From a virus (lineage: Duplodnaviria; Caudoviricetes): a stretch of 64,000 bases of DNA. The notes beneath the pieces were generated by a model. It saw nothing but the letters and a program-made list of their open reading frames with translations. It did not search any database and was not told the origin of the DNA. Made by a program: the position numbers and the translations under genes. Numbering within the stretch: the stretch's first letter is position 1; the number at the start of each line of letters is the position of its first letter. Positions 1 to 58,926 of the stretch are shown here, piece by piece. The stretch is from the IMG/VR virus record IMGVR_UViG_3300043436_003602, positions 181-64,180 of that record; one strand, given 5' to 3'.

Positions 1-387
1 GACCGCCTCCGGGCTTCGGGGCACGGGGCAGGCCCATCCTATCGAGCTCGGGCTTGCCCTGTGGTCGCGGGCTTGGGTGGCGTCTTATATTGGCTAGTTG
101 GTTAAGCCGACGAGCCCGGCTACATAGCTCAACTGGGAGACGCACACCGCGAGCTGCATGACCACCAAGAATACCACGAAGATGCGAGTGACCCAAGACA
201 TGGGGCGATCATCGCAGACTTTATCTTCAGACTCAATCATTGCCATGGTCAAGCTTCCTTTGGTAGCAGATCACCAGCTGTGTGGCCGTGACCTTGACGG
301 ACGTAACTTCCTGGCCGCGTAGAGCACAGAGCATGACGGCCGAATGAGTTTGCATCGGATGGGTTAAGGGGATATAAAGCTGAGCCA

Positions 388-651
388 TCACTTCAGCACT
401 CCCAACGTCTCGAGTGTCGTCAACCAATGGGCATCATGCTCCTTCAGGGCATTGAGGTCGATCTCCACAGTCAGCGGCTGTTGGCCTAGGGCGCAGCGAA
501 TGGAGCCGACCTGGTGAAGGTCAACCTGAAGGAAAGTGTATTCCCACCCTGTGCGGCTGTTGCTACGCTCGAGGCGGTTGATCGGCGTCTGGTTAATCAG
601 GTTGTCGGCAACCTGCTTCGACAGGCCGGTGATGGTAAGCTTCATGTCCAT
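388..651 (-). CDS. hypothetical protein (early region)
   Basis: ORF with GAGGAG RBS, packed head-to-tail with neighbouring minus-strand ORFs. Confidence 0.6.
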   Translation of the reverse strand: MDMKLTITGLSKQVADNLINQTPINRLERSNSRTGWEYTFLQVDLHQVGSIRCALGQQPLTVEIDLNALKEHDAHWLTTLETLGVLK

Positions 652-652
652 A

Positions 653-850
653 TCAAATACTCCTCACAAACTCGAGGTCGAGCTGTTGGTCATTAACCTC
701 GATGACGTAGTTGTTGCAGCCGCCGCCGTCGAAGTTGTGGTTGTGATAAACCTCCACAGGGTGGCCTTTGCGGATGATGTAGATGGTCGTCGGGTCGCTC
801 ATCGATTGAGCAACCTCGAAGGCCTCGTCGGGATCAGACTTGGAAGTCAT
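653..850 (-). CDS. hypothetical protein
   Basis: 65-aa ORF in tightly packed minus-strand cluster. Confidence 0.55.
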   Translation of the reverse strand: MTSKSDPDEAFEVAQSMSDPTTIYIIRKGHPVEVYHNHNFDGGGCNNYVIEVNDQQLDLEFVRSI

Positions 851-1133
851 CGCGCTGTTCCTGTATTGAAGGGTGAGTTACAATGGTTGCCGGTGATCCC
901 GGTGCTCGTCGGCCTCCCCGGTAATGCCTCATACAGGCACCTTTGCGAATGACCTTAAAGCCACACTTCTTAAGATCATCGATAAGATCCTCCTTGTGGC
1001 TTACGTTTTTCCATCCTCGGTAACGAAGCTCTTGCTGTATGTTGGAGATAGGCGCGCCCTTTAGGGGCAATCCTGAAGCATCTACACAGTCCTGTCGAAG
1101 CAGGGGCATAACGGCATCTTGAAGGTTAGGCAT
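834..1133 (-). CDS. hypothetical protein
   Basis: Start moved to ATG 1133 (MPNLQD) behind AAAGGA RBS. Confidence 0.55.
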   Translation of the reverse strand: MPNLQDAVMPLLRQDCVDASGLPLKGAPISNIQQELRYRGWKNVSHKEDLIDDLKKCGFKVIRKGACMRHYRGGRRAPGSPATIVTHPSIQEQRDDFQV

Positions 1134-1146
1134 TGGACTGTTCCTT

Positions 1147-1335
1147 TCAGTTCGTGACGCGGTAGAGGAGTTTACGCTTACCGCTCGGGAGGATGCCCCA
1201 GACTGACTTAGTCCAGTAATTAAGTCCTCGAATGTAAGAAAAGGGAGCACGACGGCAAGGGTTGCGTCGGCCTTGACTGTCGGTACCCGTTGCTTCAAAA
1301 GCAACATAAGGTGTAAGGTCAATAGCTTCACTCAT
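1147..1335 (-). CDS. small hypothetical protein
   Basis: Directly downstream of promoter-hairpin cassette with GGAGA RBS. Confidence 0.7.
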   Translation of the reverse strand: MSEAIDLTPYVAFEATGTDSQGRRNPCRRAPFSYIRGLNYWTKSVWGILPSGKRKLLYRVTN

Positions 1336-1347
1336 ATCAATATCTCC

Positions 1348-1398
1348 ATCGCGTTATTGCGATAGAAGCACAATACGATGATGGTCATGCGGTGTCAA
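1348..1398 (-). promoter_or_regulatory. sigma70-type promoter + 5' hairpin cassette (copy 1)
   Basis: Minus strand TTGACA-17-TATTGT-6-ATCGCAATAACGCGAT-GGAGA. Confidence 0.85.
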
Positions 1399-1682
1399 TC
1401 GACTTGATCTCGACCGGAGGAATAAAAACCTTCAGCCCATGCCTTGTTCAGCCTATCCCGTAGACGAAGTGCCCGACTGTGGACATCGGTGGACATAACT
1501 ACCTCGCGATCACCGCCGCGAGGAGCCCGGTATACCACGCAGTACTTCGACTGATCCTGGCCGACGAGCTCTCCCGCTACAGCCTCATAGGGGCTATACA
1601 GCTTGATGGTCCGCTTGATCGCGGCAGCATGAGCCTCCCGTGCGGATATTCCGCCCATCGTAACTTGTCTAGCTCGGGGCAT
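1395..1682 (-). CDS. hypothetical protein
   Basis: AGGAG RBS; overlaps upstream ORF stop. Confidence 0.6.
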   Translation of the reverse strand: MPRARQVTMGGISAREAHAAAIKRTIKLYSPYEAVAGELVGQDQSKYCVVYRAPRGGDREVVMSTDVHSRALRLRDRLNKAWAEGFYSSGRDQVD

Positions 1683-1974
1683 TGGCTATACTCCTGTCTA
1701 TCGCTTCATTAGTCCAAGGGACACGTATAAAACCTTGGTAGCCGGACTCACAGGGCACCCGGTTTTGCCGGCCTTCCTGACGCACGAGAAACTCAAACCG
1801 TTCCTGCGTCATGGTAAAGCTGTAGCCTGAGGCTTGAAGCAATCGGGTGCCGTGCTCCGGATGACGTGCTTCCCACCAATCTGTCGGAAGACGGTCACCG
1901 CCGTAGTCGTAGAGGTCATGCCACAGTACCCAACCTTCGTAGGGCTCGATGTTTTCCACGGGTGTAGGTGTCAT
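1669..1974 (-). CDS. hypothetical protein
   Basis: TGATG coupling with upstream ORF. Confidence 0.65.
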   Translation of the reverse strand: MTPTPVENIEPYEGWVLWHDLYDYGGDRLPTDWWEARHPEHGTRLLQASGYSFTMTQERFEFLVRQEGRQNRVPCESGYQGFIRVPWTNEAIDRSIANAPS

Positions 1975-2219
1975 CAGCTTGCCCGCCTCAGGCGCATGAA
2001 CCGGCGTCGTCGGCCGTTGCGACCGTCGAAGTAGGCGTGGACAACAACCGCTTCGTTATTGCGCTCATCAAGCTCATAGCGAAAGTGCAGCCGGCCAACA
2101 CGTCGGTCAGATGCAAGTCGTTGAAGCTGTCGGCGCAGGTGATCGACAGAGCGAGTTCGATAGAACTCAGGCAGGTCGGTGCCGGCATAGTTGTGTGTTT
2201 CGATATTCCAATTGGTCAT
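1974..2219 (-). CDS. hypothetical protein
   Basis: Start ATG 2219 just downstream of hairpin cassette copy 2. Confidence 0.6.
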   Translation of the reverse strand: MTNWNIETHNYAGTDLPEFYRTRSVDHLRRQLQRLASDRRVGRLHFRYELDERNNEAVVVHAYFDGRNGRRRRFMRLRRAS

Positions 2220-2229
2220 GTGTAATCCA

Positions 2230-2280
2230 GTCGCGTTATTGCGATGCGCGATCATCGCGCAATCGGGGAGGGGGGGTCAA
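2230..2280 (-). promoter_or_regulatory. sigma70-type promoter + 5' hairpin cassette (copy 2)
   Basis: TTGACC-18-GATGAT-5-ATCGCAATAACGCGAC. Confidence 0.65.
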
Positions 2281-2290
2281 CCATCTTGTT

Positions 2291-2845
2291 CTATGATAAA
2301 CCGCATAGTTTTTTGATGGCGGGAACCTCGTTTGGCGGAAACGCCCAACCATAGTCGGGCTTCGGTCGTCCTGACGCTCGCAGCGCAGCGCGCGCAATCA
2401 TCGCAGGCGTTCCTGAGGCGGCGCACAGCTCGGTAATCGTCACATAACCGTCAGGACATTGCGCTCGAGGACTGCGCTCACGTCTCGGCGCCGGTTTCGC
2501 GAGTGTGTTGGTGCCATCATCGTCGACCACGACTTCGCGGACATGCACCTCGTCCCAGGTGCCATGCTTGAAGCGGAGGATCAGTCGGGCTACGTCCTCA
2601 CGAACTGGCTCGTTGGCGATGGGCGCAGCCATGATCTGCTGCCATTGCTCGCTTCGAAGTCGGATGGTGAGGTCGGTCTCGAGAATGATGTCATTCCCAT
2701 CGAGGCGATGCTCACAGCCAGCGAGGAACTTTGTCAGCCAGGCCCGAGCATGATCGGCTCGATCAAAGACGGGGACGTAAGTGCGGGAGTATTGATCGGA
2801 CTGCCGGTGGCCGGTCGCGTAGATCACAAATTGTTCGGTCTTCAT
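2291..2845 (-). CDS. protein with C-terminal HTH-like domain (paralogue family)
   Basis: C-terminal VTITELCAASGTPAMIARAALRASGRPKPDYGWAF; start after cassette copy 3. Confidence 0.7.
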   Translation of the reverse strand: MKTEQFVIYATGHRQSDQYSRTYVPVFDRADHARAWLTKFLAGCEHRLDGNDIILETDLTIRLRSEQWQQIMAAPIANEPVREDVARLILRFKHGTWDEVHVREVVVDDDGTNTLAKPAPRRERSPRAQCPDGYVTITELCAASGTPAMIARAALRASGRPKPDYGWAFPPNEVPAIKKLCGLS

Positions 2846-2855
2846 AATAATCTCC

Positions 2856-2906
2856 ATCGCGTTATTGCGATAAAAACACAATCGCATAGTGGTGTCTTGG
2901 CGTCAA
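2856..2906 (-). promoter_or_regulatory. sigma70-type promoter + 5' hairpin cassette (copy 3)
   Basis: TTGACG-17-GATTGT-6-ATCGCAATAACGCGAT-GGAGA. Confidence 0.8.
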
Positions 2907-2911
2907 CCGCC

Positions 2912-3751
2912 TTATCCTATCTCCTTCCGGAGCTGGACACGACCACCGGCTTCCCAGCCCGCAGCTGTTCCCGAGCCGCGCTTTGGGTTACGATGACGCG
3001 GTGCCTTGTAAGGCTTGGCTGCTGACTTCCCCCGCTGCTTTTCCTCATCCTCGAGGAACTTCACGCGCTCGGGCTCAGTCATCAGCGCAAGCTTCGCAGT
3101 GCGCTCTTCCTGACGCTTGGCCTCGGCCGCCCGCATAGGCGCCCAATACTTCTCGTCTTCATATTCCTTGATCTCGTTTCGGAGCGTCTCGAAGTAGCCA
3201 GCGACAACCAGCGCACTGCTACCTGTGGAGGCCTGTGCCGTTGCGTCTTGGGTCTCCATTTCCCGCATGAGTAACAGGGCACGTTGGTAAAGCCGCCCAC
3301 CACAGGCGTCCTTGAACGATCCGCGGAAGTTCGCTCGGTCGCGTTTCGACAGGCCGCGCGGCAGTGATTGCTTGTAAAGCTGCTCGACTTGCTGGACCAG
3401 CCAGATCATCGTCTGCTCGGCAAGCTCGACGTTTTCTTCCCGGCCGAGGAACCAGTAACCGTTCTTGCCGTAATTCGGCGCATAGCAGTCGACGCCGTAA
3501 AGCACGGCTGCTGCTTCGGAGCAGAAGCACTCGTAGACCTTCATGACCGTATACTTGCGCTTCTCGACGATCTTGGGCTTGGGTGCGCCGGCGGGTCGAA
3601 CTGCATCCAGCTCGATACCGATCTTGGTAGCAAGGCCCGCGGCCATACGCATTGCGTTAGTGGCTTCATCCTCAGAACAGCCATTTTCGACGGTCATGTT
3701 GAGAAGCTTGGCGATACGTGCCTTGGTCTTGGTAATCTCTTCGGGTGTCAT
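2912..3751 (-). CDS. DUF2786-like domain protein
   Basis: N-terminal RIAKLLNM...SEDEATNAMRMAAGL matches the DUF2786 pattern; C-terminal GxxAG motif. Confidence 0.7.
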   Translation of the reverse strand: MTPEEITKTKARIAKLLNMTVENGCSEDEATNAMRMAAGLATKIGIELDAVRPAGAPKPKIVEKRKYTVMKVYECFCSEAAAVLYGVDCYAPNYGKNGYWFLGREENVELAEQTMIWLVQQVEQLYKQSLPRGLSKRDRANFRGSFKDACGGRLYQRALLLMREMETQDATAQASTGSSALVVAGYFETLRNEIKEYEDEKYWAPMRAAEAKRQEERTAKLALMTEPERVKFLEDEEKQRGKSAAKPYKAPRHRNPKRGSGTAAGWEAGGRVQLRKEIG

Positions 3752-3764
3752 TGAAGTGTCTCCT

Positions 3765-3815
3765 ATCGCGTTATTGCGATTATTAGCTTATGACGCAGTG
3801 GACGACAAGCATCAA
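3765..3815 (-). promoter_or_regulatory. sigma70-type promoter + 5' hairpin cassette (copy 4)
   Basis: TTGATG-17-CATAAG-6-ATCGCAATAACGCGAT-AGGAGA. Confidence 0.75.
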
Positions 3816-3844
3816 CTTCCCATCGTCCACTATATTCTGCGCCT

Positions 3845-4570
3845 TCACTTCGAGCCGTTGAGTATCTTGCGAATGTCGCCGGCGGCGGACTTGGGGAACA
3901 CCCAGCGTTCACCCTTGACGGGCTTGGGGTAATTCGGCTTGTCCTCATACCGACGCATCTTGGCCCGAGCGACCTTCGGATCGATGTCGAGCTCCCGAGC
4001 AATGTCAGCGACGGTGGTCTGGTTCGGGTCCTTTTCGACCTGGGGCTTTTCAGCACGAGCCTTCTGCTTGGCTTCGATCTTTTCGATCTGACGCTTCGCC
4101 TTTTCGGGGTCCTTCTTAGGATCGACCTGGCCGGCGATCTTCTTGGGCTTGCGGAACTCGGCCTCATCCTTGATGAAGCGCTTGTCGGCTTCGGACAATT
4201 CGACCTTGTTCTTCTTCTTCGCAGCCTTGCGCTCGGCCTCGCGCTGGTCGCGGACGCGCTCGCGGCAATTCCTCGCCATCTGCTCACTGTCGAGCCCGCG
4301 AGCGAGGCCGACTTTTTCAATCTTCGTAGGCTTCACGGGCGTCTCGTCTTTCGGTTTTTCCTCGGGTTCGGGACGAGCAGCGGCGACTTCCGGATCATCG
4401 ATCTTCGGCGCAGCGGCGGGATCAGCGCCGGGGAGAACGTCGGTAAATCCTGCGGCCTCGAGCTGACCGATTGCTTCATCGAGTTTTGCCTGTGAGGTCT
4501 TCCAGGATTTCAGTTCAGGCTTGCCGGCGTTGACACGCAGGCGGTTGAGCTTTTCAAGTTTCATTAACAT
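3845..4570 (-). CDS. Lys-rich protein with C-terminal HTH-like domain (paralogue family)
   Basis: C-terminal TVADIARELDIDPKVARAKMRR...RWVFP. Confidence 0.75.
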   Translation of the reverse strand: MLMKLEKLNRLRVNAGKPELKSWKTSQAKLDEAIGQLEAAGFTDVLPGADPAAAPKIDDPEVAAARPEPEEKPKDETPVKPTKIEKVGLARGLDSEQMARNCRERVRDQREAERKAAKKKNKVELSEADKRFIKDEAEFRKPKKIAGQVDPKKDPEKAKRQIEKIEAKQKARAEKPQVEKDPNQTTVADIARELDIDPKVARAKMRRYEDKPNYPKPVKGERWVFPKSAAGDIRKILNGSK

Positions 4571-4591
4571 ACACCATTCCTCTAAGTGTGC

Positions 4592-4648
4592 ATCGCGTCG
4601 TCATTGACGTGATAGGCCTACTATATGATGGTGGTGCTTAGACGTCAA
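4592..4648 (-). promoter_or_regulatory. sigma70-type promoter + variant 5' hairpin (copy 5)
   Basis: TTGACG-17-TATAGT-6-ATCACGTC-AATGAC-GACGCGAT. Confidence 0.75.
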
Positions 4649-4677
4649 TCGTCTTTATGCTTGAATGGGATAAAAAA

Positions 4678-6582
4678 TTATTCGTCGTCATCCTTGTCCC
4701 GCTCGGCGATTTCCCAAGTCTGCGTCTTAGCTTCGCCTTTACCCTTGTTTTTCTTGGTGATGCTCATTCTCGAAGCCGCGCGGTCGATCATCTTCTTCGG
4801 GATGGACCTCTTCTCCGCCATCCTATACAGCTTCTCCACCTCTACAGCTGCACCGGTGATTGTGGCCTCGAGGAACTCCATAGCATCCTGGATACCGTCC
4901 CCTTGCTTACCCTTGGTTCGAGCTTCGGTCGAGGCGTCCATCACTTCCTGTGCGGTAAGACGATTAAAGCCTTCCCAGGTAAACTCAGAGCGATCCTTTT
5001 CTTTTGCTTCAATACGAAAAGCAAGGCCGCCGGGATCAGGAGCAAGGTTTCCCTTCACAATAGCCATAACGCGGGTTTCGCTGTCATCGGGATCGACGCC
5101 GACACACATGGTCACACGAGCAGAACCCGAGAATGCGACCGAGCCTTGGCCGCGATACATCGCCGAGCCCGAGCCCTTCGTAAGGTGTCGAATAAGAAGA
5201 ACCGCGCAGTTAAACTCGTCGGCAATCTGCTTGAAAATACCCATCGCCTGTGTGGCTTCTGATGCTTTGTGGGTGTCTGCCCGGCCTATATAGGTGTTCA
5301 GGGTATCGAACACAACCAGAGAAGGCTGGATAACTTCGAGGTGCTCACAGAGTTCCCCGATAGCATCCTCATCATCAATCGAGAATGCCTGCTCGATGGG
5401 ATAGTAGTTTCCGAGATTGTCGAAGCCGTTATACTTCAAGCGAACCTTGGTAACCGATGCGGCGTTGTTCTCGATGTCGCAATAGACAACCGGGCCGTGA
5501 GCCTTGGGCTTCCCCTTATGCACACAGGGAAGTCGCTTACCCTCGGCTATTGAGGCGGCGACGATCATAGCCATGTAGCTCTTCCCAAGTCCCGGGTCAC
5601 CCTCGAGGATTGACAGGGTTTTTCTTGCAAGGTAGGGGTACCAAAGCCAATCAATTTTTTCTTCCTTGATCTCCTGCATCGAGCGAATGGTAAAGATGCC
5701 CCTCTTCTCGTCTTGGGACTCCTCCTCATCCGATTTCCTGTGGAGCTTCTCTTTCCCCTTCGGCCTTTCCTTGAACTGGTTCTCCACAACCTTGCTGAGT
5801 TCGCGCCTCAGCTGCTCGTCCTCATTGCGTCGCCCGGCGAACTTGTTCCAGCCACTACGCTTGATAACAGCAAACGCCTCGTCGAGAGTCATGCCCGCTT
5901 CTACGCAAGCATTCTCAAGCTTCCACAGCATCTCACTGCGGTCTGACCTGCCGACAGTTTTCTTGGCCAGTAGTTCCCGGCGCACCCACCTGGGTAGCTC
6001 GGCCTCATACTTCTCGAACACTTCGGCCGCGGAAAGGTGTTCCCCCTCCTCTACTTCTTCAGGAGGCGGCAAGTACTTCTCGACCCGCTTCACCGTCCAG
6101 GTTTTGCCGTCCTTCCAAGCGACACGGACTTTAGGCTGTGCGGCGTATTTGTAGTTGCGGGTGCCGGGAACTCGCAAGAGCTGTGTAAGGTCCCATCCGC
6201 CATGGTCAGCATCTACCGCGTAGGTTAGGCGGCGATTAAGGTCTTCGGTCATCGGGCCATTCAAGACCCACAGTCCCACCCATCGACCGGGGGACGACTC
6301 GATAGCGATTGTTGGCCGAGGCTTCATGTCATTCGGGTTAGCGAAGTCAAGGTCGGCCCACAGCAAGTTGGGAATTACTGCTTCACTCTTCTGTCTTACG
6401 CGACGGTTAAACCCGTGCGGGCAGAAATAAATATCGTGGTCGTCATAGTCCTTGAGGAATTGACGGATATCTCCGAACTGGTCACGCGAGAAAAAGTGGT
6501 CTTTGAATTGCCCCCCAGCAGACTTAGTGGATAGGCAAAAGAATTTACCGGGCTGCTGCGCCCACAAATCCGTTATTAGCAT
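4678..6582 (-). CDS. primase-helicase (RepB/AEP-like primase + AAA_25/RecA-like helicase + C-terminal winged-helix-like domain)
   Basis: LWADLD, ESSPGR and LRVPGT primase motifs; Walker A GDPGLGKS; Walker B LVVFDT; RHLTK motif. Confidence 0.9.
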   Translation of the reverse strand: MLITDLWAQQPGKFFCLSTKSAGGQFKDHFFSRDQFGDIRQFLKDYDDHDIYFCPHGFNRRVRQKSEAVIPNLLWADLDFANPNDMKPRPTIAIESSPGRWVGLWVLNGPMTEDLNRRLTYAVDADHGGWDLTQLLRVPGTRNYKYAAQPKVRVAWKDGKTWTVKRVEKYLPPPEEVEEGEHLSAAEVFEKYEAELPRWVRRELLAKKTVGRSDRSEMLWKLENACVEAGMTLDEAFAVIKRSGWNKFAGRRNEDEQLRRELSKVVENQFKERPKGKEKLHRKSDEEESQDEKRGIFTIRSMQEIKEEKIDWLWYPYLARKTLSILEGDPGLGKSYMAMIVAASIAEGKRLPCVHKGKPKAHGPVVYCDIENNAASVTKVRLKYNGFDNLGNYYPIEQAFSIDDEDAIGELCEHLEVIQPSLVVFDTLNTYIGRADTHKASEATQAMGIFKQIADEFNCAVLLIRHLTKGSGSAMYRGQGSVAFSGSARVTMCVGVDPDDSETRVMAIVKGNLAPDPGGLAFRIEAKEKDRSEFTWEGFNRLTAQEVMDASTEARTKGKQGDGIQDAMEFLEATITGAAVEVEKLYRMAEKRSIPKKMIDRAASRMSITKKNKGKGEAKTQTWEIAERDKDDDE

Positions 6583-6764
6583 GGCGCCGCGTCTTTCTCA
6601 TTCTTGAGGCGCTCGACCTCTTCCTTCGGTATAAGCACGATATGCTTACCGGGCCTTTCTACAGTTACCGTTCCTCGGTGGATACGCTGATGCAAGGCCA
6701 TATACTCTATGCCTATATATTCAGCGGCCGCCTTCACGGTGTAATAGTCTTGAAGAGAACTCAC
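6576..6764 (-). CDS. excisionase/MerR-like HTH DNA-binding protein
   Basis: YTVKAAAEYIGI...IHRG...IPKEEVERL pattern; GTG start at 6764. Confidence 0.75.
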   Translation of the reverse strand: MSSLQDYYTVKAAAEYIGIEYMALHQRIHRGTVTVERPGKHIVLIPKEEVERLKNEKDAAPC

Positions 6765-6777
6765 ACGGGACCCCCGG

Positions 6778-6828
6778 TTGACAATGGCGTGAACTCCGGA
6801 ATATACTGTCAAAACATTTCACGGTCAA
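6778..6828. promoter_or_regulatory. overlapping divergent sigma70-type promoters
   Basis: Plus: TTGACA(6778)-18-TATACT; minus: TTGACC-17-TATATT; the two -10 boxes overlap. Confidence 0.7.
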
Positions 6829-6845
6829 CTCCTGAGGAAAACCCC

Positions 6846-7337
6846 ATGATTATTATTGAAGGTATGGACAACAGCGGTAAGTCGACACTGGCCCAAGCGA
6901 TGGCTTCTTATATGGGGTTGATCGTTCAAGAAAGTGAAGGGCCGCCACTCGACGCTGCGGAGATAAATGCTCGCGTTGATCGATACGAGGGCATGACGGA
7001 TCGCCTGTTCGTTCGCCACCCTGTGGTATCCAATGCAATTTACGGCCAGGTTCGTGAAGAGGGCGACCCGATCACCTTCGGCCGGCGAGTGTTGTTTTAC
7101 GATCAGGGCCATACCTTTATCTACTGTGATGCCGGGCAGCGCGGCTTGGGCGCACACGTCGAAAAGGCTCACGATACCGAGAAGCACCTCGAGGACATCA
7201 CCAACAACTACAACAAGCTGCTCTATCTCTATCGGCAATGGGCCGCTGAGCATGCTCACTTCATCTATCGCATCGGCGATGATATGGACCAGCTGATCAG
7301 CACGGTCTACTTCTACCTCAACTACCAACAGTCGTAA
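6846..7337 (+). CDS. P-loop dNMP (thymidylate-type) kinase
   Basis: N-terminal IIIEGMDNSGKSTLA Walker A; GAGG RBS. Confidence 0.8.
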   Translation: MIIIEGMDNSGKSTLAQAMASYMGLIVQESEGPPLDAAEINARVDRYEGMTDRLFVRHPVVSNAIYGQVREEGDPITFGRRVLFYDQGHTFIYCDAGQRGLGAHVEKAHDTEKHLEDITNNYNKLLYLYRQWAAEHAHFIYRIGDDMDQLISTVYFYLNYQQS

Positions 7338-7347
7338 AGAAAGGAAG

Positions 7348-8283
7348 ATGGGCATGTTTACTCATCGCTACGCGGATGGCGACTTCTACACATACGTAGG
7401 AGACCAGGAGGGCAGGCACCCGGAAACGGGTAAATGGGTCAAGGGGGTTTGTTACCGAGGAGCAACCGGTGAGCTTTACTGGACCAGCGAAGCTCGATGG
7501 GAGGAAAAGTTCGAGGCACTCCCGCCCTCTCGCTTCGAAGAACAACGGATCGAGCTTACCGATCCCGGTACCGAAGAGGTGGTCGCAGCATTCGTTATGC
7601 GTATGGACGAAGTTACCGACGTTCGCCACATGCTGCTGTCTGCTTGCAATGTTGCCAGCAAGGCCCGCGACCATCATGTCGAGATCGTCCTTCGGGCCCA
7701 GGCAGACATGATCTCCAAGGGTCTGCACATTCGCGAGGTCGACTTCCCCGACTTGATCGGCGATGTCAATGCCTTCCATGAGAAGTTCAAGCAGATCGAG
7801 CCCACAACCTACGGGGTGCCCCGGGTATTGCCCGCCGACCTATTTGACTTCCGCGTCAAGTTCCATGATGAGGAGACCGATGAGTATAGGGAAGAGCAGG
7901 AGACCCTGGTCGAGGCCTTTGACCGGGAAGACCATCGCGAGGTCGTCAACTCGCTCGAGCTTCAACTTGACGCCTTGTGCGATGCCGTATGGGTGTTGCT
8001 TGGCACCGCGGACCTTCAGTTCGGCAAGAAGATTTTCTATGAAGCCTGGAAGCGCGTCTTCAAGGCCAATATGGCGAAGGTGCTGGCAACCGAAGACCCG
8101 AACGCGAAGGACAGCGGCCGAGATGTCAAGTATGATATTCGCAAGCCCGCCGGCTGGACACCGCCCGATCACCGGGACTTGGTGCAGGAGTATCTCCGTC
8201 CTACGAAGCCTGGGGCCGAGGAGCCTGTCGAGACCAACACCTTCAATGAGCCGGTCTCCCCCGATTACTCGGGGAAAGTCTGA
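7348..8283 (+). CDS. MazG/PRA-PH-like nucleotide pyrophosphohydrolase with N-terminal DUF1653-like domain
   Basis: EETDE...DALCDAVWV...ANMAK...IRKPAGWTPPD in C-terminal half; HPETG...VCY...LY in N-terminus. Confidence 0.75.
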   Translation: MGMFTHRYADGDFYTYVGDQEGRHPETGKWVKGVCYRGATGELYWTSEARWEEKFEALPPSRFEEQRIELTDPGTEEVVAAFVMRMDEVTDVRHMLLSACNVASKARDHHVEIVLRAQADMISKGLHIREVDFPDLIGDVNAFHEKFKQIEPTTYGVPRVLPADLFDFRVKFHDEETDEYREEQETLVEAFDREDHREVVNSLELQLDALCDAVWVLLGTADLQFGKKIFYEAWKRVFKANMAKVLATEDPNAKDSGRDVKYDIRKPAGWTPPDHRDLVQEYLRPTKPGAEEPVETNTFNEPVSPDYSGKV

Positions 8284-9116
8284 TGAAGAGCGAGTGGGTT
8301 CAAGCCGTCCTGAAGATGAGTCATCGAAAGGCTGATCTATATTCGGGATGCAGGAAGATCATTCAGGGTAAATCGATCCTGTTCCACGACCTGTGGGATA
8401 GCGAAGACCCCCTCGTCCTGGAGGATGCGGGCTATACCAGAAGCAAGCTCGCTCACCTGGTTCGGGGATACGTGCATGAGGAGTCGATTGAAGCGGCATT
8501 GATGCTGTGGAAGTTGAGGAGGCAGAAAACCTCCTACGGCTCTGTGGGTTTCACCTGCTACAATCACTTCCTCAAGAACGACGCGGTGAAGAAGTCGAAG
8601 CGCGCCTCTGTCATGGGACCGTGCATCCAGGCTATCACAATAACCCAAGTAAAAGGCGGTAAGAAAGGACAGTACTTCATCGACTGTTTCTACCGCACGA
8701 CCGAGCTGCTCAAGAAGTTTCCCGCCGACCTGGTCTTCATCCGCGATGTCCTGCTCAAGGACTTCGACTTTAGCGGTATGGAGTTTCTGGGGATGCGGTG
8801 TCACTTCGCTAACATCACGGTCCACCCCGCTTACTTTGCGACGGTGATCCCGCACCTAGAAGACCCGATTGCTGAACTTGAAAAGCTCAAGAAGAAGGAT
8901 CGGTATTTCTACGACTGGTGTATCAAGTGGACCGCCCGCTACTTGTGCGAGGAACATCATCGCGGTATTGCCAAACACGCCCAGTCGCAGAGAGTGAAGG
9001 TCGATGCTGAAAAGCGCATCAAGGGTAAGCTTCGCCGCAAACTGATTGACTACTTGAGAGCCAACCACCCGGGTCATACCCGAGGCTATGAAGAACCTGA
9101 AGGAGATGAAGAATGA
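8283..9116 (+). CDS. divergent ThyA-fold protein (paralogue A)
   Basis: GPC, YRTTELLKKFPAD and HFANITVH align in order with the TS PC, RSxD...N/D and GxxH motifs. Confidence 0.6.
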   Translation: MKSEWVQAVLKMSHRKADLYSGCRKIIQGKSILFHDLWDSEDPLVLEDAGYTRSKLAHLVRGYVHEESIEAALMLWKLRRQKTSYGSVGFTCYNHFLKNDAVKKSKRASVMGPCIQAITITQVKGGKKGQYFIDCFYRTTELLKKFPADLVFIRDVLLKDFDFSGMEFLGMRCHFANITVHPAYFATVIPHLEDPIAELEKLKKKDRYFYDWCIKWTARYLCEEHHRGIAKHAQSQRVKVDAEKRIKGKLRRKLIDYLRANHPGHTRGYEEPEGDEE

Positions 9117-9955
9117 TGTATCGAGATTTTGAAGCCGCCATTGAAGACGTCCGGGCTCGCCTAAAAGGCGGTGGTGAGATCGTCCACAGTCGGCGCTGGC
9201 AGGGCGTTGAGATTGCGGCTAATCCCAATATGGCATGCCTCGAGGTAACTCACCTGCACCTCGAAATCCCCATGGATGGTTACGAAGAAGACCTCGAGGC
9301 TTACGCTCGGCATATTGGGCCTGACCTCCCCTGGGCTGACAATCACTTCGAGGAACGGGTAAGTGGCTACCCGATCAATCCGGGCACGGAGTTCAAGCAC
9401 TGGCCCTGGAACAAAGGCCGAGGCGCCGAGTCGTTCCTCGACCGTCGGGGCAAGTTCAATCATAACTACATGGAGCGGTATTGGCCGAAGCAGGCTCACG
9501 TTATCGCGGAGCCGACTTCTTCGCGCTCAGACTATCGGTCGCGTTATCGGGACTATTTCCAGACGGGCAAGGTCACAACCATGAAGGGCATCGTGTATGA
9601 GTATGGCGACCTTCGAGACGTGGTGGACCTGATGATCGATGATCCGCTGACGCGGCAGGCCTACTTGCCTGTGTGGTTCCCCGAGGACACCGGCGGCGGT
9701 GAGAAGCGAGCACCCTGCACCCTCGGCTATCACTTCATGATGCGGAATGACCGTCTCTCGATCAACTACCATATTCGCAGCTGTGACTTCGTCAAGCACC
9801 TCCGCAACGATCTTTACTTGACGGCTCGCCTCGTCATCTGGATGCTGCATCAGCTCCGGTCGCGTGATCCTCGGTGGAAGGACGTGAAGGTGGGCGACTT
9901 CGTCATGCAGATTGGCTCCCTGCATTCCTTCAAGCCGGATTGGGAGTTGATCTGA
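9113..9955 (+). CDS. ThyA-fold pyrimidine-modifying enzyme, dCMP hydroxymethylase-like (paralogue B)
   Basis: TRQAY, APC, RSCDFVKHLRND, IGSLH; Asp at the position of E. coli TS Asn177. Confidence 0.85.
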   Translation: MMYRDFEAAIEDVRARLKGGGEIVHSRRWQGVEIAANPNMACLEVTHLHLEIPMDGYEEDLEAYARHIGPDLPWADNHFEERVSGYPINPGTEFKHWPWNKGRGAESFLDRRGKFNHNYMERYWPKQAHVIAEPTSSRSDYRSRYRDYFQTGKVTTMKGIVYEYGDLRDVVDLMIDDPLTRQAYLPVWFPEDTGGGEKRAPCTLGYHFMMRNDRLSINYHIRSCDFVKHLRNDLYLTARLVIWMLHQLRSRDPRWKDVKVGDFVMQIGSLHSFKPDWELI

Positions 9956-10155
9956 TGCAGATTAACACCCTTTTCGACATCGGGGATCAGGTAACCATCG
10001 ACCGCGACGATAGCGGAGTGATTGTGGGTCTAATCTTGGCGGTTAACACTCGCGGAACGGGCCTCAACGTCACCTATGACGTAGCCTGGTTCCACAACGG
10101 GCAGTCCTGCTCGGCCTGGATCGAGGAATGGAGGCTGAACAAATGGGGAGAATAA
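9955..10155 (+). CDS. small beta-barrel (SH3-like) hypothetical protein
   Basis: TGATG-coupled 66-aa ORF with FDIGDQV...YDV pattern. Confidence 0.6.
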   Translation: MQINTLFDIGDQVTIDRDDSGVIVGLILAVNTRGTGLNVTYDVAWFHNGQSCSAWIEEWRLNKWGE

Positions 10156-10640
10156 GCAGAGAGCAAATGTTCATGGACATGGCTCGGGCGGCATCACGCC
10201 GCTCGACCTGTTTCCGTTTGAACGTCGGCGCAATCGTCATCCAGGGGAACAACCCCATAGCGGTTGGCTACAATGGTCATGAGCCCGGCGCGCCTCACTG
10301 CGCGGGAAACTCTTGCCCCGGTGTAGTGCCCGGTAAATGCGGAACCCGTCACGCCGAGGTTAATGCTTTGGAAAAGGCAAAGACCCTCCTGCTCGGCCGG
10401 CACCGCAAGCCCGTGGACCTGTACTGCACAGATAGCCCGTGTAGTGCTTGCGTCGACTATATCATCCGCGAACGGGATAAGGGGATGACCGGTATCCAGG
10501 TTGACCGCATCTTCTATGAAACACCCTATCGTGATACCAGTCACCTTAGTCGACTTCATGGAGTGATAGAAGTTTACTTGGTGACACCGGCAGGATATGT
10601 TGTCGATAACTTCTCTCGGCGCGTAGTGGTGACTCAATGA
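10143..10640 (+). CDS. dCMP deaminase family protein
   Basis: RSTC...VGA...GYNG, HAE and SPCxxC zinc motifs. Confidence 0.9.
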   Translation: MGRISREQMFMDMARAASRRSTCFRLNVGAIVIQGNNPIAVGYNGHEPGAPHCAGNSCPGVVPGKCGTRHAEVNALEKAKTLLLGRHRKPVDLYCTDSPCSACVDYIIRERDKGMTGIQVDRIFYETPYRDTSHLSRLHGVIEVYLVTPAGYVVDNFSRRVVVTQ

Positions 10641-14235: not shown

Positions 14236-14242
14236 ATGACGG

Positions 14243-14271
14243 TTGCAGGGCACTCGCTTCCGTGATATACA
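14243..14271 (+). promoter_or_regulatory. sigma70-type promoter
   Basis: TTGCAG-17-TATACA upstream of ATPase gene. Confidence 0.5.
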
Positions 14272-14299
14272 AGCAAACCTGAGCAAAGGATCACTAACC

Positions 14300-15996: not shown

Positions 15997-16022
15997 TCCC
16001 GTCGGGTCGCCCTGGACGGGAG

Positions 16023-16056
16023 GGGCGGCTCGAGCAATCGGGTCGCCCTTTCTTTT
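16023..16056 (+). terminator. Rho-independent terminator
   Basis: GGGCGGCTCGA-GCAA-TCGGGTCGCCC followed by TTTCTTTT. Confidence 0.75.
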
Positions 16057-16071
16057 AGCTGGAGGAATACT

Positions 16072-16275
16072 ATGGCTTGGATGAAAATCTCAGAACCCCT
16101 GATGGTTAAACTGCTGGAATTACCTGAGGGCACGTCTCTCGGTTGTGATCCTTCCGGCAATATGGATATTGAGGTATTTCACCCCGATATACCGAAGGAC
16201 GCAAAGAACGTACTGCCCACCTGGGTCAAGGAGGGAGATACCATGAAGTTCCTGGGATTTAAGGTTATCGACTAA
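16072..16275 (+). CDS. hypothetical protein
   Basis: GGAGG RBS; TAATG coupling to next gene. Confidence 0.7.
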   Translation: MAWMKISEPLMVKLLELPEGTSLGCDPSGNMDIEVFHPDIPKDAKNVLPTWVKEGDTMKFLGFKVID

Positions 16276-16700: not shown

Positions 16701-17130
16701 GGTTCATGGGTCAGCCTTTCAAGAAAGTGGCCAGCCAGACATCATTGGGTGCGTCGATGGGCAGTTCTACGGATTTGAGGTTAAAGTGCCGCTCAAAGGA
16801 AAGCCTAGCGAGCTTCAACTCGAGACTCTCGCTGAATGGCGTGAACAGGGAGCTATCGCTTGTATCGTGGAAAGCCCTTCACAAGCAGTCGCCTTGGTTA
16901 AAGCTGCTCAAGCCACACCAGAAAAGAGGCGTCGAGGCAATCGTCTCTACCGATGGATTTGCCGCACTCTTCGCGCAACGCACGGGGAAGACATGGGTTA
17001 CGGGCGCAGTGCTAGAGGTGGAAAGACTAAGCACCCTAGACGTACTCCTCGTTGGGCCAAAGACCAATTTGAAAAGCACATGGGTAAAGTTCTTCCAAGA
17101 GAAGCTGCCCCACTATCGTGTGTGCCTTAG
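16621..17130 (+). CDS. VRR-NUC domain nuclease
   Basis: ETRIQ...GQPDII...FEVK...SELQ; the domain ends near residue 95 but the ORF runs on. Confidence 0.8.
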   Translation: MSKKAETRIQQRIRKALLKEVGGKWFKVHGSAFQESGQPDIIGCVDGQFYGFEVKVPLKGKPSELQLETLAEWREQGAIACIVESPSQAVALVKAAQATPEKRRRGNRLYRWICRTLRATHGEDMGYGRSARGGKTKHPRRTPRWAKDQFEKHMGKVLPREAAPLSCVP

Positions 17131-18331
17131 CCTGAAAGAGTATGACGCCTACCGGAAGAGCGTAGGCAAGCACTCAATCCCCAATACCCATGCCGTCTTG
17201 ATGCTGAACCCAGAGCAGGTCACACCGATCCGCGATAAGCTCAAGCGGCGCAAGTGGGATCGGATGGTTTGGGACGAAGCACAGCGACTGAAGAACCGCA
17301 CGTCACAATCCAGCCGGGATGCTGCGATGATCTCCCGGGCTGCGAAGCGCCGGCTCGCACTGACCGGAACACCCATGGACCTCGACCCGAAGGACCTGTG
17401 GGCAATCATGCGGTTTGTCGAAGTCAATGCGCTCGGCGATGGCTGGGGCGACTTCGAGGATCACTTCCTGGTCAAGCCGACAATCGATCTCAAGAAAAAG
17501 ATGGGCATGGTGCAGCGTCAGAAGATGATGCTCGCCTATCAGATTGCCAAGCGCAAAGCGCCGATGCGCGAAGATCGGATGGAGGAATACGCCGACCTTA
17601 TCAGTCCGCACGTCATGAGGATCAGCAAGGAGGATGCCGGGATCGATCCTGCCCGCGTTCACCTTATCAAGTTCGACCTTGATCCAGCGGAGGAGAAAAA
17701 GTACCGGCAGCTGGAAAAGCACATGCTTGTCCGGGTCAAGGGCAAAGCGATCAAGACGCCGCTCAAAATTACGCAGATCGGAAAGTTGCAGCAAATCACC
17801 GGAGGGCATATCAAGGATGAGGAGGGCGAGGTCCACAGGATCGGGACGACCAAGCGCCGGCGACTACGCCGTGCAATCCGGAAGCACGTCGAGCCCGGCA
17901 AGCCTTTTGTAGTCTTCTGCAGGTTTGTCTGGGAAGTTCATCTGATAGCCCGGATACTTGAGCGAATGAACCTCGGGCGAGGTGCCAAGCTGTGGGGTAA
18001 GGTAAAGGACCTGAAGAAAGACCCTCGTCGAACCAACATGCTGCTAGACTTTCAAAAGGGCAAGTATGATTGGATGGTTTGCCAGCAGAAAACTGGTGGG
18101 GTGGGCGTCGATCTATACCGGGCTCGTAAGTTCTTCGTGTATTCGATGGGCCACTCCTATATCGATTATGACCAGATGCTTAGCCGGGGCGACTTCCTAG
18201 AACAAAACGAGACGGCAGATTTTTTTCTGCTGGTGGTTCGATCATCTATTGACACGGATATCGTTTCTGCTGTAGTAAAGAAAAAGTCGATCACGGAAGC
18301 GTTCTATGATCGATTGAAACGCGAACCATGA
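16841..18331 (+). CDS. SNF2-like SF2 helicase (start uncertain)
   Basis: LKPHQ, RTGKT, WDEAQ, LTGTP, GGVGVDL; GTG 16841 chosen tentatively. Confidence 0.85.
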   Translation: MNRELSLVSWKALHKQSPWLKLLKPHQKRGVEAIVSTDGFAALFAQRTGKTWVTGAVLEVERLSTLDVLLVGPKTNLKSTWVKFFQEKLPHYRVCLSLKEYDAYRKSVGKHSIPNTHAVLMLNPEQVTPIRDKLKRRKWDRMVWDEAQRLKNRTSQSSRDAAMISRAAKRRLALTGTPMDLDPKDLWAIMRFVEVNALGDGWGDFEDHFLVKPTIDLKKKMGMVQRQKMMLAYQIAKRKAPMREDRMEEYADLISPHVMRISKEDAGIDPARVHLIKFDLDPAEEKKYRQLEKHMLVRVKGKAIKTPLKITQIGKLQQITGGHIKDEEGEVHRIGTTKRRRLRRAIRKHVEPGKPFVVFCRFVWEVHLIARILERMNLGRGAKLWGKVKDLKKDPRRTNMLLDFQKGKYDWMVCQQKTGGVGVDLYRARKFFVYSMGHSYIDYDQMLSRGDFLEQNETADFFLLVVRSSIDTDIVSAVVKKKSITEAFYDRLKREP

Positions 18332-18346
18332 TGAAGGGACATTTCA

Positions 18347-18721
18347 ATGGCCAAGGACAAGTCAAAAAGTAACAAGTCGGAAAAAGTCGATGCGAAGAAC
18401 GAAAAGGCGGCCGAACGCGAGTTCAAGTATGGCGTCGAGGACATCGCCGAGGAACTGGGCATCAAGCCGGCTTCGGTGCGCGTCCAGCTCCGCAACAAGG
18501 GCATCGAAAAAGCCGGGAAGGCCTATGGCTGGAACTCCAAGTCGGAGCTGAAGGAGGTGATCGAGCAGATCAAGGCCAAGGCCGACGAGGATGAGGACGA
18601 AGCGCCCGCCAAGAAGTCGAAGAAGAAGGACAAGGCCGAGAAGCCGGCGAAGACCGACAAGAAGGCCAAGAAGGCGAAGACTAAGAAGTCTAAGGACGAC
18701 GAGGACGAAGACGACGATTGA
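18347..18721 (+). CDS. Lys/Asp-rich protein with HTH-like domain (paralogue family)
   Basis: GVEDIAEELGIKPASVRVQLRNKGIEKAGKAYGW. Confidence 0.75.
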   Translation: MAKDKSKSNKSEKVDAKNEKAAEREFKYGVEDIAEELGIKPASVRVQLRNKGIEKAGKAYGWNSKSELKEVIEQIKAKADEDEDEAPAKKSKKKDKAEKPAKTDKKAKKAKTKKSKDDEDEDDD

Positions 18722-18748
18722 TCGTCAACACGCCATCACTATTCCTCC

Positions 18749-18782
18749 GAGGGGTCCTGGGTTCGCGCCTGGGGCCCCTTCT
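18749..18782 (+). terminator. putative terminator hairpin ending replication operon
   Basis: GC-rich imperfect inverted repeat AGGGGTCC...GGCCCCTT; weak U tract. Confidence 0.45.
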
Positions 18783-18940
18783 GGTAGGTGCGAACGTCGA
18801 GCGCTGAGGTCAAATCGACTAGTCGATGCGCAGTGCGTCACTTCATACGCCGACGACCGAGCTCATCAATCGCCCAGCGCTGCCCTGGCATACCATCATG
18901 ATGATCGCCTAAGGACGTAAAAGCGTTCTATATCTGCCCA

Positions 18941-18969: not shown

Positions 18970-19000
18970 ACCCTCATCGCGGGATTGAAGGGGCATAGCC

Positions 19001-44165: not shown

Positions 44166-44831
44166 ATGGCACGAGCAAGAAAATCCCATATAAGCAATGA
44201 AGAGAAGGTGAAGAACCGCAGCGGCCCCCTTGAGTACCCCTACGTTGTCTATTGCTCGTACCATCGTGAAGGCGAAGACCACGCTCGATGCTTAGTCCTG
44301 AAGTTCACCGATCCCGCGAGCGCGCGTAACATGGTGGACCAGGTCATCGGGAATGACGAGTGGGAGTGGCAGCTGTGGATGGGCCGCGACGACATGGTGG
44401 TTACATCGAAGGGGATCAAGATACGAACTTGGGGCAACGAGATGCGAGAGATCATGAGCGTTGACCCCGCCGACGTTGAACGTGAAGAAATCAAGCATGT
44501 CCTGCAGTTTAAGTATAGCTCTCCCGAGGGCGGCCGAAAAGAAAAGCTGCCCGTCCACAACCCGCTGAACGATGACCCCGCCACAGTCCGGCCCGGGAAG
44601 CCCGTCAAAGAGAAAGCTCCTCCCAAGCCGAAGGTTGATCTGTCGGGAATGGTTACTGCGAAGGATATTGCCAAGAAACTTAAGGTCGAAGGACGAGAAG
44701 TTCGCGGCGTCCTTCGATCACTCAAGCTGACCAAGCCCGATCACGGATGGGCCTGGTCCAAGGATGAAGCAGCGAAGATCGAGGAGAAAGTTCATGCTGG
44801 CCTCAAGGAAGCCAAAGCCAAGAAAAAGTGA
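44166..44831 (+). CDS. protein with C-terminal HTH-like domain (paralogue family)
   Basis: VTAKDIAKKLKVEGREVRGVLRSLKLTKPDHGWAW; AAGGAG RBS. Confidence 0.75.
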   Translation: MARARKSHISNEEKVKNRSGPLEYPYVVYCSYHREGEDHARCLVLKFTDPASARNMVDQVIGNDEWEWQLWMGRDDMVVTSKGIKIRTWGNEMREIMSVDPADVEREEIKHVLQFKYSSPEGGRKEKLPVHNPLNDDPATVRPGKPVKEKAPPKPKVDLSGMVTAKDIAKKLKVEGREVRGVLRSLKLTKPDHGWAWSKDEAAKIEEKVHAGLKEAKAKKK

Positions 44832-58526: not shown

Positions 58527-58580
58527 GTGGAGCGCAGCGAGGAGGGGTGGATGGTGCTGCGCTCCACGGGTTACGGATTA
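58527..58580. repeat. hairpin element copy B
   Basis: GTGGAGCGCAGC-N17-GCTGCGCTCCAC-GGGTTACGGATTA. Confidence 0.85.
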
Positions 58581-58907
58581 TTCAGCGATTGCGTCCTCCG
58601 TAACCTTTGCTGTTGCTGTTGCCTTACGGGGCGCGCGGGGAGCGGGCGCAATGGCGGCAGCGTATGAAGGGTCAAACTGGGCGCGGACCTTGTCATATTG
58701 CTTCGCATCGAACGCCCAGGCGGCATTGCGTTCATGGACGTCTTTCATATTAGCGCGTAACCAAACGCGGACTTTTTTGTCGGAGTTGGCGGATGCAAGC
58801 GAAGAGGTCGGATTGGCGTCAACAATATCACGAATGACAAGTTTGAGCGAAACAGTGGCACCGCGAGCGGTGGGACGGTTGGCGGCAATCGTGGTAGACT
58901 TTGTCAT
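58578..58907 (-). CDS. small protein with divergent HTH-like domain (paralogue family)
   Basis: DKKVRVWLRANM...AAWAF. Confidence 0.6.
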   Translation of the reverse strand: MTKSTTIAANRPTARGATVSLKLVIRDIVDANPTSSLASANSDKKVRVWLRANMKDVHERNAAWAFDAKQYDKVRAQFDPSYAAAIAPAPRAPRKATATAKVTEDAIAE

Positions 58908-58926
58908 ATTTAATTCCATTCAATAA

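Follow-up and report, generated by a model that had tools for sequence, protein, structure and literature searches.

The 64-kb window (the whole stretch of phage DNA analysed here) encodes several small proteins in which an R-x-x-L-R peptide pattern recurs. This raises the question of whether these segments are copies of one domain and, if so, what that domain does. The initial annotation described five dispersed paralogues, and all five peptide strings that it named are present, with strand and coordinates correct. The corresponding genes are designated A to E, and their features are collected in Table 1.

Table 1. Features of the window. Domain E values are from the broad-profile search of the six-frame fragments.
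Feature	Position	Strand	Description
Other ATCGCAATAACGCGAT core copies	1348, 2230, 3765, 58931, 60517, 62379, 63912	all (-)	
Gene A	2291..2887	(-)	Conserved alpha/beta N-domain and C-terminal wHTH-like domain; ORF, domain E 3.5e-20
Domain segment of A	2294-2458	(-)	
Cassette before A	2843..2940	(-)	TTGAC (-35), 17 nt, GATTGT (-10), ATCGCAATAACGCGAT (2856-2871), GGAG, ATG
Gene B	3845..4570	(-)	N-terminal helical motif of ~45 aa, long K/E-rich linker, C-terminal wHTH-like domain; ORF, E 1.8e-12
Domain segment of B	3848-4033	(-)	
SNF2-family helicase	16706..18331	(+)	Pfam SNF2-rel_dom 2.5e-24, Helicase_C 5.3e-5
Gene C	18347..18721	(+)	wHTH-like domain between K/D/E-rich tails; ORF, E 4.2e-21
Domain segment of C	18410-18610	(+)	
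Large terminase (TerL)	41991-43802	(-)	Divergent from D; TerL and nearby portal by Pfam
Gene D	44166..44831	(+)	Paralogue of A with wHTH-like domain; ORF, E 8.3e-28
Domain segment of D	44631-44828	(+)	
Gene E	58578..58919	(-)	Doubtful match, covering part of the domain's second half; likely start ATG 58907 (MTKS...)
E segment, doubtful partial match	58668-58868	(-)	

Four of the five, A to D, belong to one family. A broad profile, built from 173 sequences of the domain found elsewhere and excluding those of the window, was searched against the 1165 six-frame fragments of the window. It matched A-D far above chance, at E values from 1.8e-12 to 8.3e-28, and the matches span approximately positions 2-60 of the 62 profile positions and include both R-x-x-L-R and G-W, which places all four within the family. 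The members of this profile had been recruited through a profile of A-D, and subfamily-only profiles were therefore used in addition. The D-orthologue-only profile (25 sequences) scored A at 6.3e-5, B at 0.0024 and C at 0.47, and the C-type-only profile (18 sequences) scored D at 2.6e-6, B at 0.0015 and A at 7.3; these scores therefore link A with D, B with D, C with D and B with C. Each of the proteins A to D has one homologous copy of a domain of approximately 55-60 residues, while the fifth proposed paralogue, E, is only a doubtful one. In the profile searches for further copies in the window, the next-best fragments, 52544-52930 (-) at E 0.081 and 6579-6818 (-), were not significant. Megablast of window positions 1-20000 against phage records did not find a close relative, the sole match being 42 nt.

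The predicted shape of the domain is strand, helix, turn, helix, loop, strand and long helix. In the AF2 model of D (mean pLDDT 88.3) the domain elements are E162-164, H165-172, H176-185, E196-198 and H199-220, with pLDDT values of approximately 95-97. The AF2 model of C has the same order of elements (E28-29, H30-37, H41-50, strands at 56-62 and H65-84), with pLDDT 85-90 over residues 30-80 and a disordered K/D/E tail after the domain. Both models display the MerR-type winged helix-turn-helix (wHTH) topology of strand, helix 1, turn, recognition helix 2, strand/wing and helix. The HTH-like character first proposed for these segments is borne out to this extent, as a predicted winged HTH of the MerR/RacA/Par type. 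The top Foldseek match of the C model was 8csh_A (probability 0.90), and searches with the C and D models against the PDB and with the D model against BFVD gave nothing at E<=1e-3. We infer that the domain is a minimal winged helix-turn-helix belonging to the MerR/excisionase fold class, with the RacA and pSK1 Par DNA-binding domains and the IF2 N-domain as its probable nearest relatives in structure. Two arginines, R180 and R184, are invariant in 132 A/D-type sequences and both lie inside H176-185; in the same set, L183, K190, P191, G194 and W195 show conservation of 90% or more. The prediction of a D-D pair scored 0.01, which bears on dimerisation neither way.

The likeness to RacA of B. subtilis and to pSK1 Par of S. 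aureus is distant, with 14-24% sequence identity to the window domain and no link by sequence search. RacA and Par are segregation proteins with the domain at the N-terminus, ahead of a coiled coil, whereas the window copies belong to phage proteins and are C-terminal or standalone with charged tails. Unlike MerR regulators and excisionase/HTH_17 (PF12728), the window domain has no second wing helices, and it lacks the long, antiparallel, C-terminal coiled-coil dimerisation helix that follows the wHTH of classical MerR regulators and joins it to an effector-binding region. A, B and D all terminate with the domain, and 107 of the 110 A/D-type representatives have it 25 residues or fewer from the C-terminus. 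For the five window proteins, Pfam gave no match at E<=1 that attains the family cut-off. Among the MerR, MerR_1 and HTH_17 models, the best score is that of C with HTH_17 (E 0.022; 15.4 bits, where the cut-off is 27), and A, B, D and E match none of the three at E<=1. The domain therefore does not belong to those sequence families, and the likeness is at the level of fold. Pfam, NCBIfam and PHROGs yielded no significant match to the five proteins; NCBIfam had none to A-D at E<=0.1, the sole hits were PHROGs 33386, 21603 and 36397 (all of unknown function), and PDB sequences searched with the C-type and A/D-type alignment profiles gave nothing below E 0.035.

The family is large. A four-sequence profile matched 1387 representatives at E<=1e-3, 162 of them at E<=1e-10, among 1.84 billion, so that the family comprises at least 1387 clusters at 50% identity, without a Pfam or NCBIfam model. 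A keyword-level, non-exhaustive literature search did not find a paper naming the domain. The best 149 of the 1387 representatives comprise 110 A/D-type proteins, 23 small proteins, 10 others, two MuF proteins, two multi-HTH proteins, one B-type protein and one SNF2 fusion, a census that is biased to the A/D type because two of the four seeds were of that type. In a Pfam scan of 150 proteins (D and these 149), every Pfam family was matched by at most three proteins, and the HTH families came from the two multi-HTH repeat proteins. Multiple copies are also found in a related cultured phage, Brevundimonas phage Strzyga, which has six at E<=6.9e-5 among 1122 fragments.

The domain is joined to different partners. 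The initial annotation held that each copy is fused to a different N-terminal region, which is wrong for A and D; these are full-length paralogues with 186 aa aligned at 24.7% identity (E 1.3e-12, five-sequence database). The true start of A is likely the ATG at 2845 (MKTEQ...), 8 nt past GGAG, judging by the layout of promoter and Shine-Dalgarno (SD) sequence. The N-terminus of B has counterparts in another family member, P0090, and at Strzyga 6810-7304. The next partner is the SNF2-family helicase encoded directly upstream of C. The junction of the two genes reads TGA TGA, then AGGGA, then the ATG of C in the same frame. A homologous protein, P0162, contains both the helicase (31% identity, E 1e-70) and the C domain (63% identity, E 4e-22), and two others, P0180 and P0181, are fusions of a helicase and the C domain with 66-75% helicase identity. 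Judged by these sequences, C is a C-terminal helicase module that is split off here and fused in relatives. A gene annotated as DNA helicase in Yersinia phage P744 also covers the domain (E 7e-6). Weaker tblastn matches (E 0.08-0.3) lie under the DNA helicase genes of two Pseudomonas phages, Almagne and PMBT14, and the PMBT14 helicase was matched by Foldseek as well (40% identity, 73 columns). In other phages, P0027 (SPP1 gp7 minor capsid model, 1.6e-22) and P0033 are MuF/SPP1-gp7 proteins with two domain copies each and a C-terminal HExxH region. Phage 'polyvalent' MuF proteins have been noted to contain HTH and further dsDNA-binding domains in rare cases (Iyer et al. 2017, PMC5512222). P0027 and P0033 resemble those proteins, whereas no copy in the window belongs to a MuF protein; the present domain does not appear to be named in that article.

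These observations suggest that the module probably serves as a portable anchor on double-stranded DNA, reused on varied partners. In RacA and pSK1 Par, which have been described as wHTH proteins of the MerR type, helix alpha2 occupies the major groove and the wing lies on the backbone (PMC11500499). By a similar arrangement, the second helix of the present domain, with both invariant arginines of R-x-x-L-R, would enter the major groove, with the K-P-x-x-G-W loop and strand forming a wing on the backbone. Binding would be of low sequence specificity, and the module would keep the attached partner on DNA. For C the partner would be the SNF2 translocase, for A and D a conserved alpha/beta domain, and for B a helical motif attached through the long charged linker; in other phages the partners would include capsid-internal proteins of the MuF/SPP1-gp7 type, held by two module copies. 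The earlier suggestion of an adaptor that tethers effectors to DNA gains indirect support here, since attachment to such different partners fits a DNA-binding adaptor.

An alternative is that A, B and/or E are sequence-specific regulators that bind, as a dimer, the repeat ATCGC-N6-GCGAT after the -10 element of eight early promoters and so switch early genes. The ATCGCAATAACGCGAT core is a 16-bp inverted repeat with half-site centres 11 bp apart, present in six exact copies, and the cassettes containing it lie after a sigma-70-like promoter and ahead of the SD in eight early minus-strand genes. A and E themselves lie behind the repeat (with 0 and 2 mismatches), as autoregulation would predict, and many operator binders are found among MerR-type wHTH proteins. 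The initial annotation had placed three of the five copies behind such hairpin cassettes, but B follows a promoter-like variant without the core. The same cassette also precedes six other genes, so that only two of eight cassette-led genes carry the domain, whereas C and D have no cassette, and a general anchor is favoured by the attachment of the domain to helicases and to capsid proteins. In Strzyga, the core was not found at up to 2 mismatches despite the six domain copies. The proposal that the domain reads the hairpin motif is therefore not supported, and we regard the regulator model as unlikely. The OmpR-type regulator of the window (19001-19396, Trans_reg_C 6.9e-8) is an equally good candidate for the repeat. 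The cassette may also act as RNA, in which a stem would enclose the SD; the RNA before A folds at -11.5 kcal/mol (z -2.77) with GGAGA within the stem.

Also doubtful is a protein- or RNA-contact module that, like the IF2 N-domain, would dock its partners on machinery of the host or phage, for example the ribosome, RNA polymerase or replisome, in place of binding DNA. The IF2 N-domain is among the two best matches for C and is, to our knowledge, not an established DNA binder. ESM Atlas structure results for D and E include IF2_N clusters, although below the bar of that tool, and Pfam IF2_N (PF04760) was matched by three of the 150 scanned proteins (D and the best 149 representatives). The IF2_N model, however, has no match at E<=1 among the five window proteins, and their context is one of phage DNA enzymes, not translation. 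The majority of the consistent matches are proven DNA-binding domains, several of them solved on DNA (RacA, pSK1 Par, TnrA/GlnR, MerR, SoxR, CueR, BmrR and BldC). The partners, an SNF2 translocase and SPP1-gp7-type capsid proteins, act on DNA, and both invariant residues are arginines of the second helix.

The position of D invites a further explanation, in which D, and A by descent, would recognise the packaging site as a small-terminase-like protein whose Nu1-type winged HTH marks phage DNA for TerL. D adjoins the TerL and portal genes in the window, in six of nine related viral loci and in Strzyga, and the region upstream of TerL showed no other small-terminase candidate. The related-locus search was seeded with 25 closer sequences and reaches near kin only; TerL is 72-77% identical across the six syntenic loci, which are all close kin and therefore count as one observation, and the three more distant loci show no TerL in the flanking DNA examined. 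D itself evolves much faster than the adjoining terminase, with 29-45% identity across relatives against 72-77%. A lambda Nu1-type small terminase was rejected as a counterpart of D, in which the HTH is C-terminal rather than N-terminal, the predicted N-domain is small and alpha/beta rather than a helical ring-forming core, and transcription is divergent, away from TerL. The paralogue A also lies among early genes, and a packaging role appears quite improbable.

A chance or compositional likeness of unrelated short basic segments is scarcely credible, being excluded for A-D by scores of 1e-12 to 1e-28, by the subfamily-only profiles and by the agreement of the predicted C and D structures and their fold matches, and it has a case only for E. 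Marginal scores were obtained for E with four profiles: 0.69 with the four-sequence profile, ranked below an unrelated fragment, 0.0053 with the broad profile over positions 24-56 only, and 1.5 and 3.3 with the subfamily profiles. The first helix in E aligns only past an insertion. By hhalign, E gave P 0.0017 with a probability of 15.6%, and its reciprocal profile search gave a best match of 0.008 against 0.45 on reversed sequences; only four close homologues were found. The odds that E is a degenerate fifth copy are about even.

A more specific form of DNA binding, which we consider a long shot, is that the module reads an 'own-DNA' tag, with all four to six copies per genome recognising a feature of that phage's DNA such as a base modification. 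If this were true, helicase, capsid-internal and early proteins would be concentrated on phage rather than host DNA, and the reuse of the domain on many partners per genome and the fast evolution of D relative to the terminase would be explained. The window also contains divergent thymidylate-synthase-like, deaminase and ThyX-like genes, which could possibly make such a modification.

The portable anchor on double-stranded DNA remains the favoured reading. The family is real but ordinary in kind, and as this kind of domain is familiar, the result adds annotation and a hypothesis that can be tested, not a new principle. The family gives many phage 'hypothetical proteins' a probable role and fold, and it allows a small gene after an SNF2 helicase to be read as a detached helicase module. 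The two arginines on one helix may provide a handle on the way in which phages hold replication, early and capsid-internal proteins on DNA.

Genes A–E of the window (see table) were compared for a small winged-HTH-like domain with R-x-x-L-R and G-W signatures. The peptide strings behind the five paralogues proposed in the initial annotation are all found (5/5) within the ORFs at the positions claimed, and MAFFT alignment of the five segments places a hydrophobic T/V-x-x-[DE]-[IL]-[AC], an R-x-x-[LM]-R pair and an aromatic W/Y-x-[FW] with an amphipathic stretch behind it in common columns. Paralogy holds for A, B, C and D, which on sequence comparison are a single connected, significant family. 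BLASTP matched A with D (24.7% over 186 aa, E 1.3e-12), C with D (3.7e-5), B with C (1.8e-4) and A with B (0.006), E-values that are generous due to the five-sequence database. Against 1165 six-frame fragments of the window, a profile built without the window's own sequences, from 173 copies of the domain found elsewhere, matched A at 3.5e-20, B at 1.8e-12, C at 4.2e-21 and D at 8.3e-28. Because these 173 were recruited with an A–D profile, two subfamily-only profiles were added: 25 D-orthologues, found with D alone, matched A at 6.3e-5, B at 0.0024 and C at 0.47, and 18 small C-type proteins matched D at 2.6e-6, B at 0.0015 and A at 7.3 (same fragments).

Features of the window (core, ATCGCAATAACGCGAT; TS, thymidylate synthase)
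Feature	Position	Strand	Remark
Gene A	2291-2887	-	198 aa ORF
Gene B	3845-4570	-	241 aa ORF
Gene C	18347-18721	+	124 aa ORF
Gene D	44166-44831	+	221 aa ORF
Gene E	58578-58919	-	113 aa ORF
Terminase large subunit	41991-43802	-	
Portal	40395-41972	-	
TS-like	9113-9955	+	E 1e-5
dCMP deaminase	10128-10640	+	
Family A polymerase	10637-13216	+	
SNF2 helicase	16706-18331	+	
ThyX-like	46381-47373		weak match
Core	1348-1363	-	
Core	2230-2245	-	1 mismatch
Core	2856-2871	-	
Core	3765-3780	-	
Core	58931-58946	-	2 mismatches
Core	60517-60532	-	
Core	62379-62394	-	
Core	63912-63927	-	
102-nt repeat	62366-62467		
102-nt repeat	63899-64000		
102-nt repeat	1335-1436		67% copy
33-nt repeat	48922-49149		
33-nt repeat	61809-62346		
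55-nt repeat	46026-46182		
Candidate ORF	45842-46297	+	
Candidate ORF	45805-46173	-	
Candidate ORF	45908-46525	-	
Charged runs	15127-15996		289-aa ORF before helicase
Charged runs	18579-18721		tail of C

A different N-terminal region had been proposed for each copy, which fails for A and D, as these are full-length paralogues by BLASTP. The domain is joined to their shared N-domain more often than to any other partner: of 155 proteins with >60 residues ahead of the domain, 138 form one BLAST-linked cluster including A and D, and the A/D type makes up 110 of 149 best representatives, a census that leans to this type since two of the four seeds belong to it. The domain ends ≤25 residues from the C-terminus in 107 of those 110. 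B carries its own N-terminal motif, common to P0090 (a protein from another source) and one gene of the cultured Brevundimonas phage Strzyga.

From 1.84 billion cluster representatives, the four-sequence profile, built from A–D only and thus seeded by them, retrieved 1387 at E≤1e-3, of which 162 scored ≤1e-10. All five window proteins stay below the Pfam cut-offs (best, C with Sigma70_r4_2 at 0.0036 and HTH_17 at 0.022), and NCBIfam gave no match for A–D at E≤0.1. No Pfam family matched more than three of 150 proteins (D plus the 149 representatives); the HTH-family matches trace to P0048 and P0102, two proteins with multiple HTH repeats that align with just the HTH half of the profile. PHROGs 36397, 33386, 29569 and 21603 were matched, none with an assigned function, and phrog_66 ("excisionase and transcriptional regulator") was touched by 2 of 132 members at 1.5e-4. 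The family is real, large and without a name, yet of a familiar kind.

The 64,180 nt record, covered by the window from 181 to 64180, is rated complete by CheckV. Its plus-strand replication block encodes a divergent TS-like protein, dCMP deaminase, family A DNA polymerase, PD-(D/E)XK nuclease, AAA_24 protein, SNF2 helicase and OmpR-type regulator. The TS-like gene is very divergent, the polymerase has a UDG-like region at its N-terminus, and together with the deaminase and ThyX-like genes they would fit an unusual metabolism of pyrimidines or modification of the DNA. Elsewhere, a 55-nt sequence present in three identical copies, spaced at a 51-nt period, forms a perfect tandem coding repeat in the overlap of three candidate ORFs. 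A DNA-level search of deposited phage genomes found no close relative, and the Brevundimonas phages Strzyga and Polewnik resemble this genome in proteins and gene order. Strzyga exhibits six domain fragments at E≤6.9e-5 among 1122 (a D-like copy adjoining the terminase, an A-like, a C-like after the helicase, a B-like and two more), so the expansion characterises the lineage rather than this genome alone. D-orthologues adjoin the terminase large subunit and portal genes in six of nine related viral loci, which would fit a rival, less probable packaging role for D; these six are close kin and count as one observation. D is 29–45% identical in related loci versus 72–77% for the terminase large subunit and 68–77% for terminase and portal together, and evolves much faster than its neighbours.

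The AlphaFold2 model of D (132 sequences, mean pLDDT 88.3) contains an N-domain at residues 26–117 (beta-beta-alpha-beta-beta-beta-alpha-alpha), a disordered linker and a C-terminal domain (E162-164, H165-172, H176-185, E196-198, H199-220). The C model (25 sequences, pLDDT 85–90) repeats the element order of this C-terminal domain between disordered tails. Foldseek returned nothing at E≤1e-3 for either model, with the pSK1 Par DNA-binding domain ranked first for C (probability 0.90). VIA-align gave a consistent picture across both models, and structural matches include the N-domains of ParA2 and P1 ParA, many MerR-family chains (TnrA, GlnR, SoxR, MerR, CueR, PbrR, BmrR, TipAL), TorI, BldC and a mycobacteriophage Xis.

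The fifth proposed paralogue, E, matches only marginally. It scored 0.69 with the four-sequence profile, second-best beyond the four seeds, 0.0053 with the 173-sequence profile over positions 24–56 of 62 only (next fragment 0.081), 1.5 with the D-orthologue profile and 3.3 with the C-type profile, and its best pairwise BLASTP value was 0.10 in the five-sequence database. Hhalign of the E family, five near-identical sequences, with the domain alignment yielded, across 36 columns, a probability of 15.6% (P 0.0017). In the reciprocal search, the E-profile scored no better than 0.008 on family members, with the register correct every time, versus 0.45 on reversed sequences. In the ESM Atlas, the low-confidence model of E aligned with clusters of IF2_N and AlpA/HTH_17, every row falling below the tool's bar and hence a lead only; a second, less probable rival would give the domain an IF2-N-like role that does not involve DNA. 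The chances that E belongs to the family are about equal either way.

The eight core copies, six of them exact, all precede early minus-strand genes, each a few bases past a sigma-70-like TTGAC-N17-(T/G)AT(T/A)GT-like promoter and directly before GGAG and ATG. From this layout, the starts of A and E likely shift to 2845 and 58907. Of the three domain genes said to lie behind such a hairpin cassette, A and E do have the core, whereas B has a similar promoter only; a gene behind a cassette is one that opens an early transcription unit. The leader RNA of A forms an 11-pair stem including GGAGA (-11.5 kcal/mol, z -2.77, equalled by 3 of 200 shuffles) that buries the Shine-Dalgarno site; the element may act as an operator, as a translational switch or in both ways. 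The proposed link between domain and hairpin was not borne out, and operator binding at the cassettes is a less probable rival, as A and E are two of eight core-preceded genes and the core is absent, at ≤2 mismatches, from nine related loci and from Strzyga despite its six domain copies. A 102-nt promoter/leader stretch is repeated exactly 1533 nt apart, which suggests that early transcription units were recently duplicated. A 33-nt periodic repeat, with 10 copies of a 93-nt register, lies in the coding sequence of two distant genes and probably encodes 11-residue helical repeats.

C starts 15 nt past the SNF2 helicase; after the terminal TGA TGA of the helicase come AGGGA and then the start codon of C, ATG, in the same frame as the helicase. 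P0162 combines a homologous helicase (31% identity, E 1e-70) with a C-terminal copy of the C domain (63% over 52 residues). In P0180 (665 aa, 541+124) the helicase continues directly into C, as it does in P0181; both come from contigs of ~62 kb, helicase identity to the window is 66–75%, and the Met-Ala-Lys of C is still readable inside the ORFs. With tblastn, the domain lies C-terminally under an annotated "DNA helicase" gene of Yersinia phage P744 (E 7e-6), more weakly under those of Pseudomonas phages Almagne and PMBT14 (E 0.08–0.3), the latter helicase also being matched by Foldseek, and at the helicase border in a Desulfofustis phage (E 6e-7) and a Caudoviricetes record (8e-6). These fusions and the junction in the window make C a module of the helicase that is detached in this phage. 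The tail of C and the ORF before the helicase contain long D/E-rich acidic, then K-rich runs (repeat families D2, D6–D8 and D12), histone-tail-like and without a Pfam match. P0027 and P0033, both minor capsid proteins of the MuF/SPP1-gp7 type, have two domain copies and an HExxH region and belong to the "polyvalent" protein class, in which HTH and other dsDNA-binding domains are reported as rare occurrences (PMC5512222). Somewhat more probably than not, the domain is a dsDNA-anchoring module with a winged HTH like that of MerR and RacA, which these phages would have reused on several partners.
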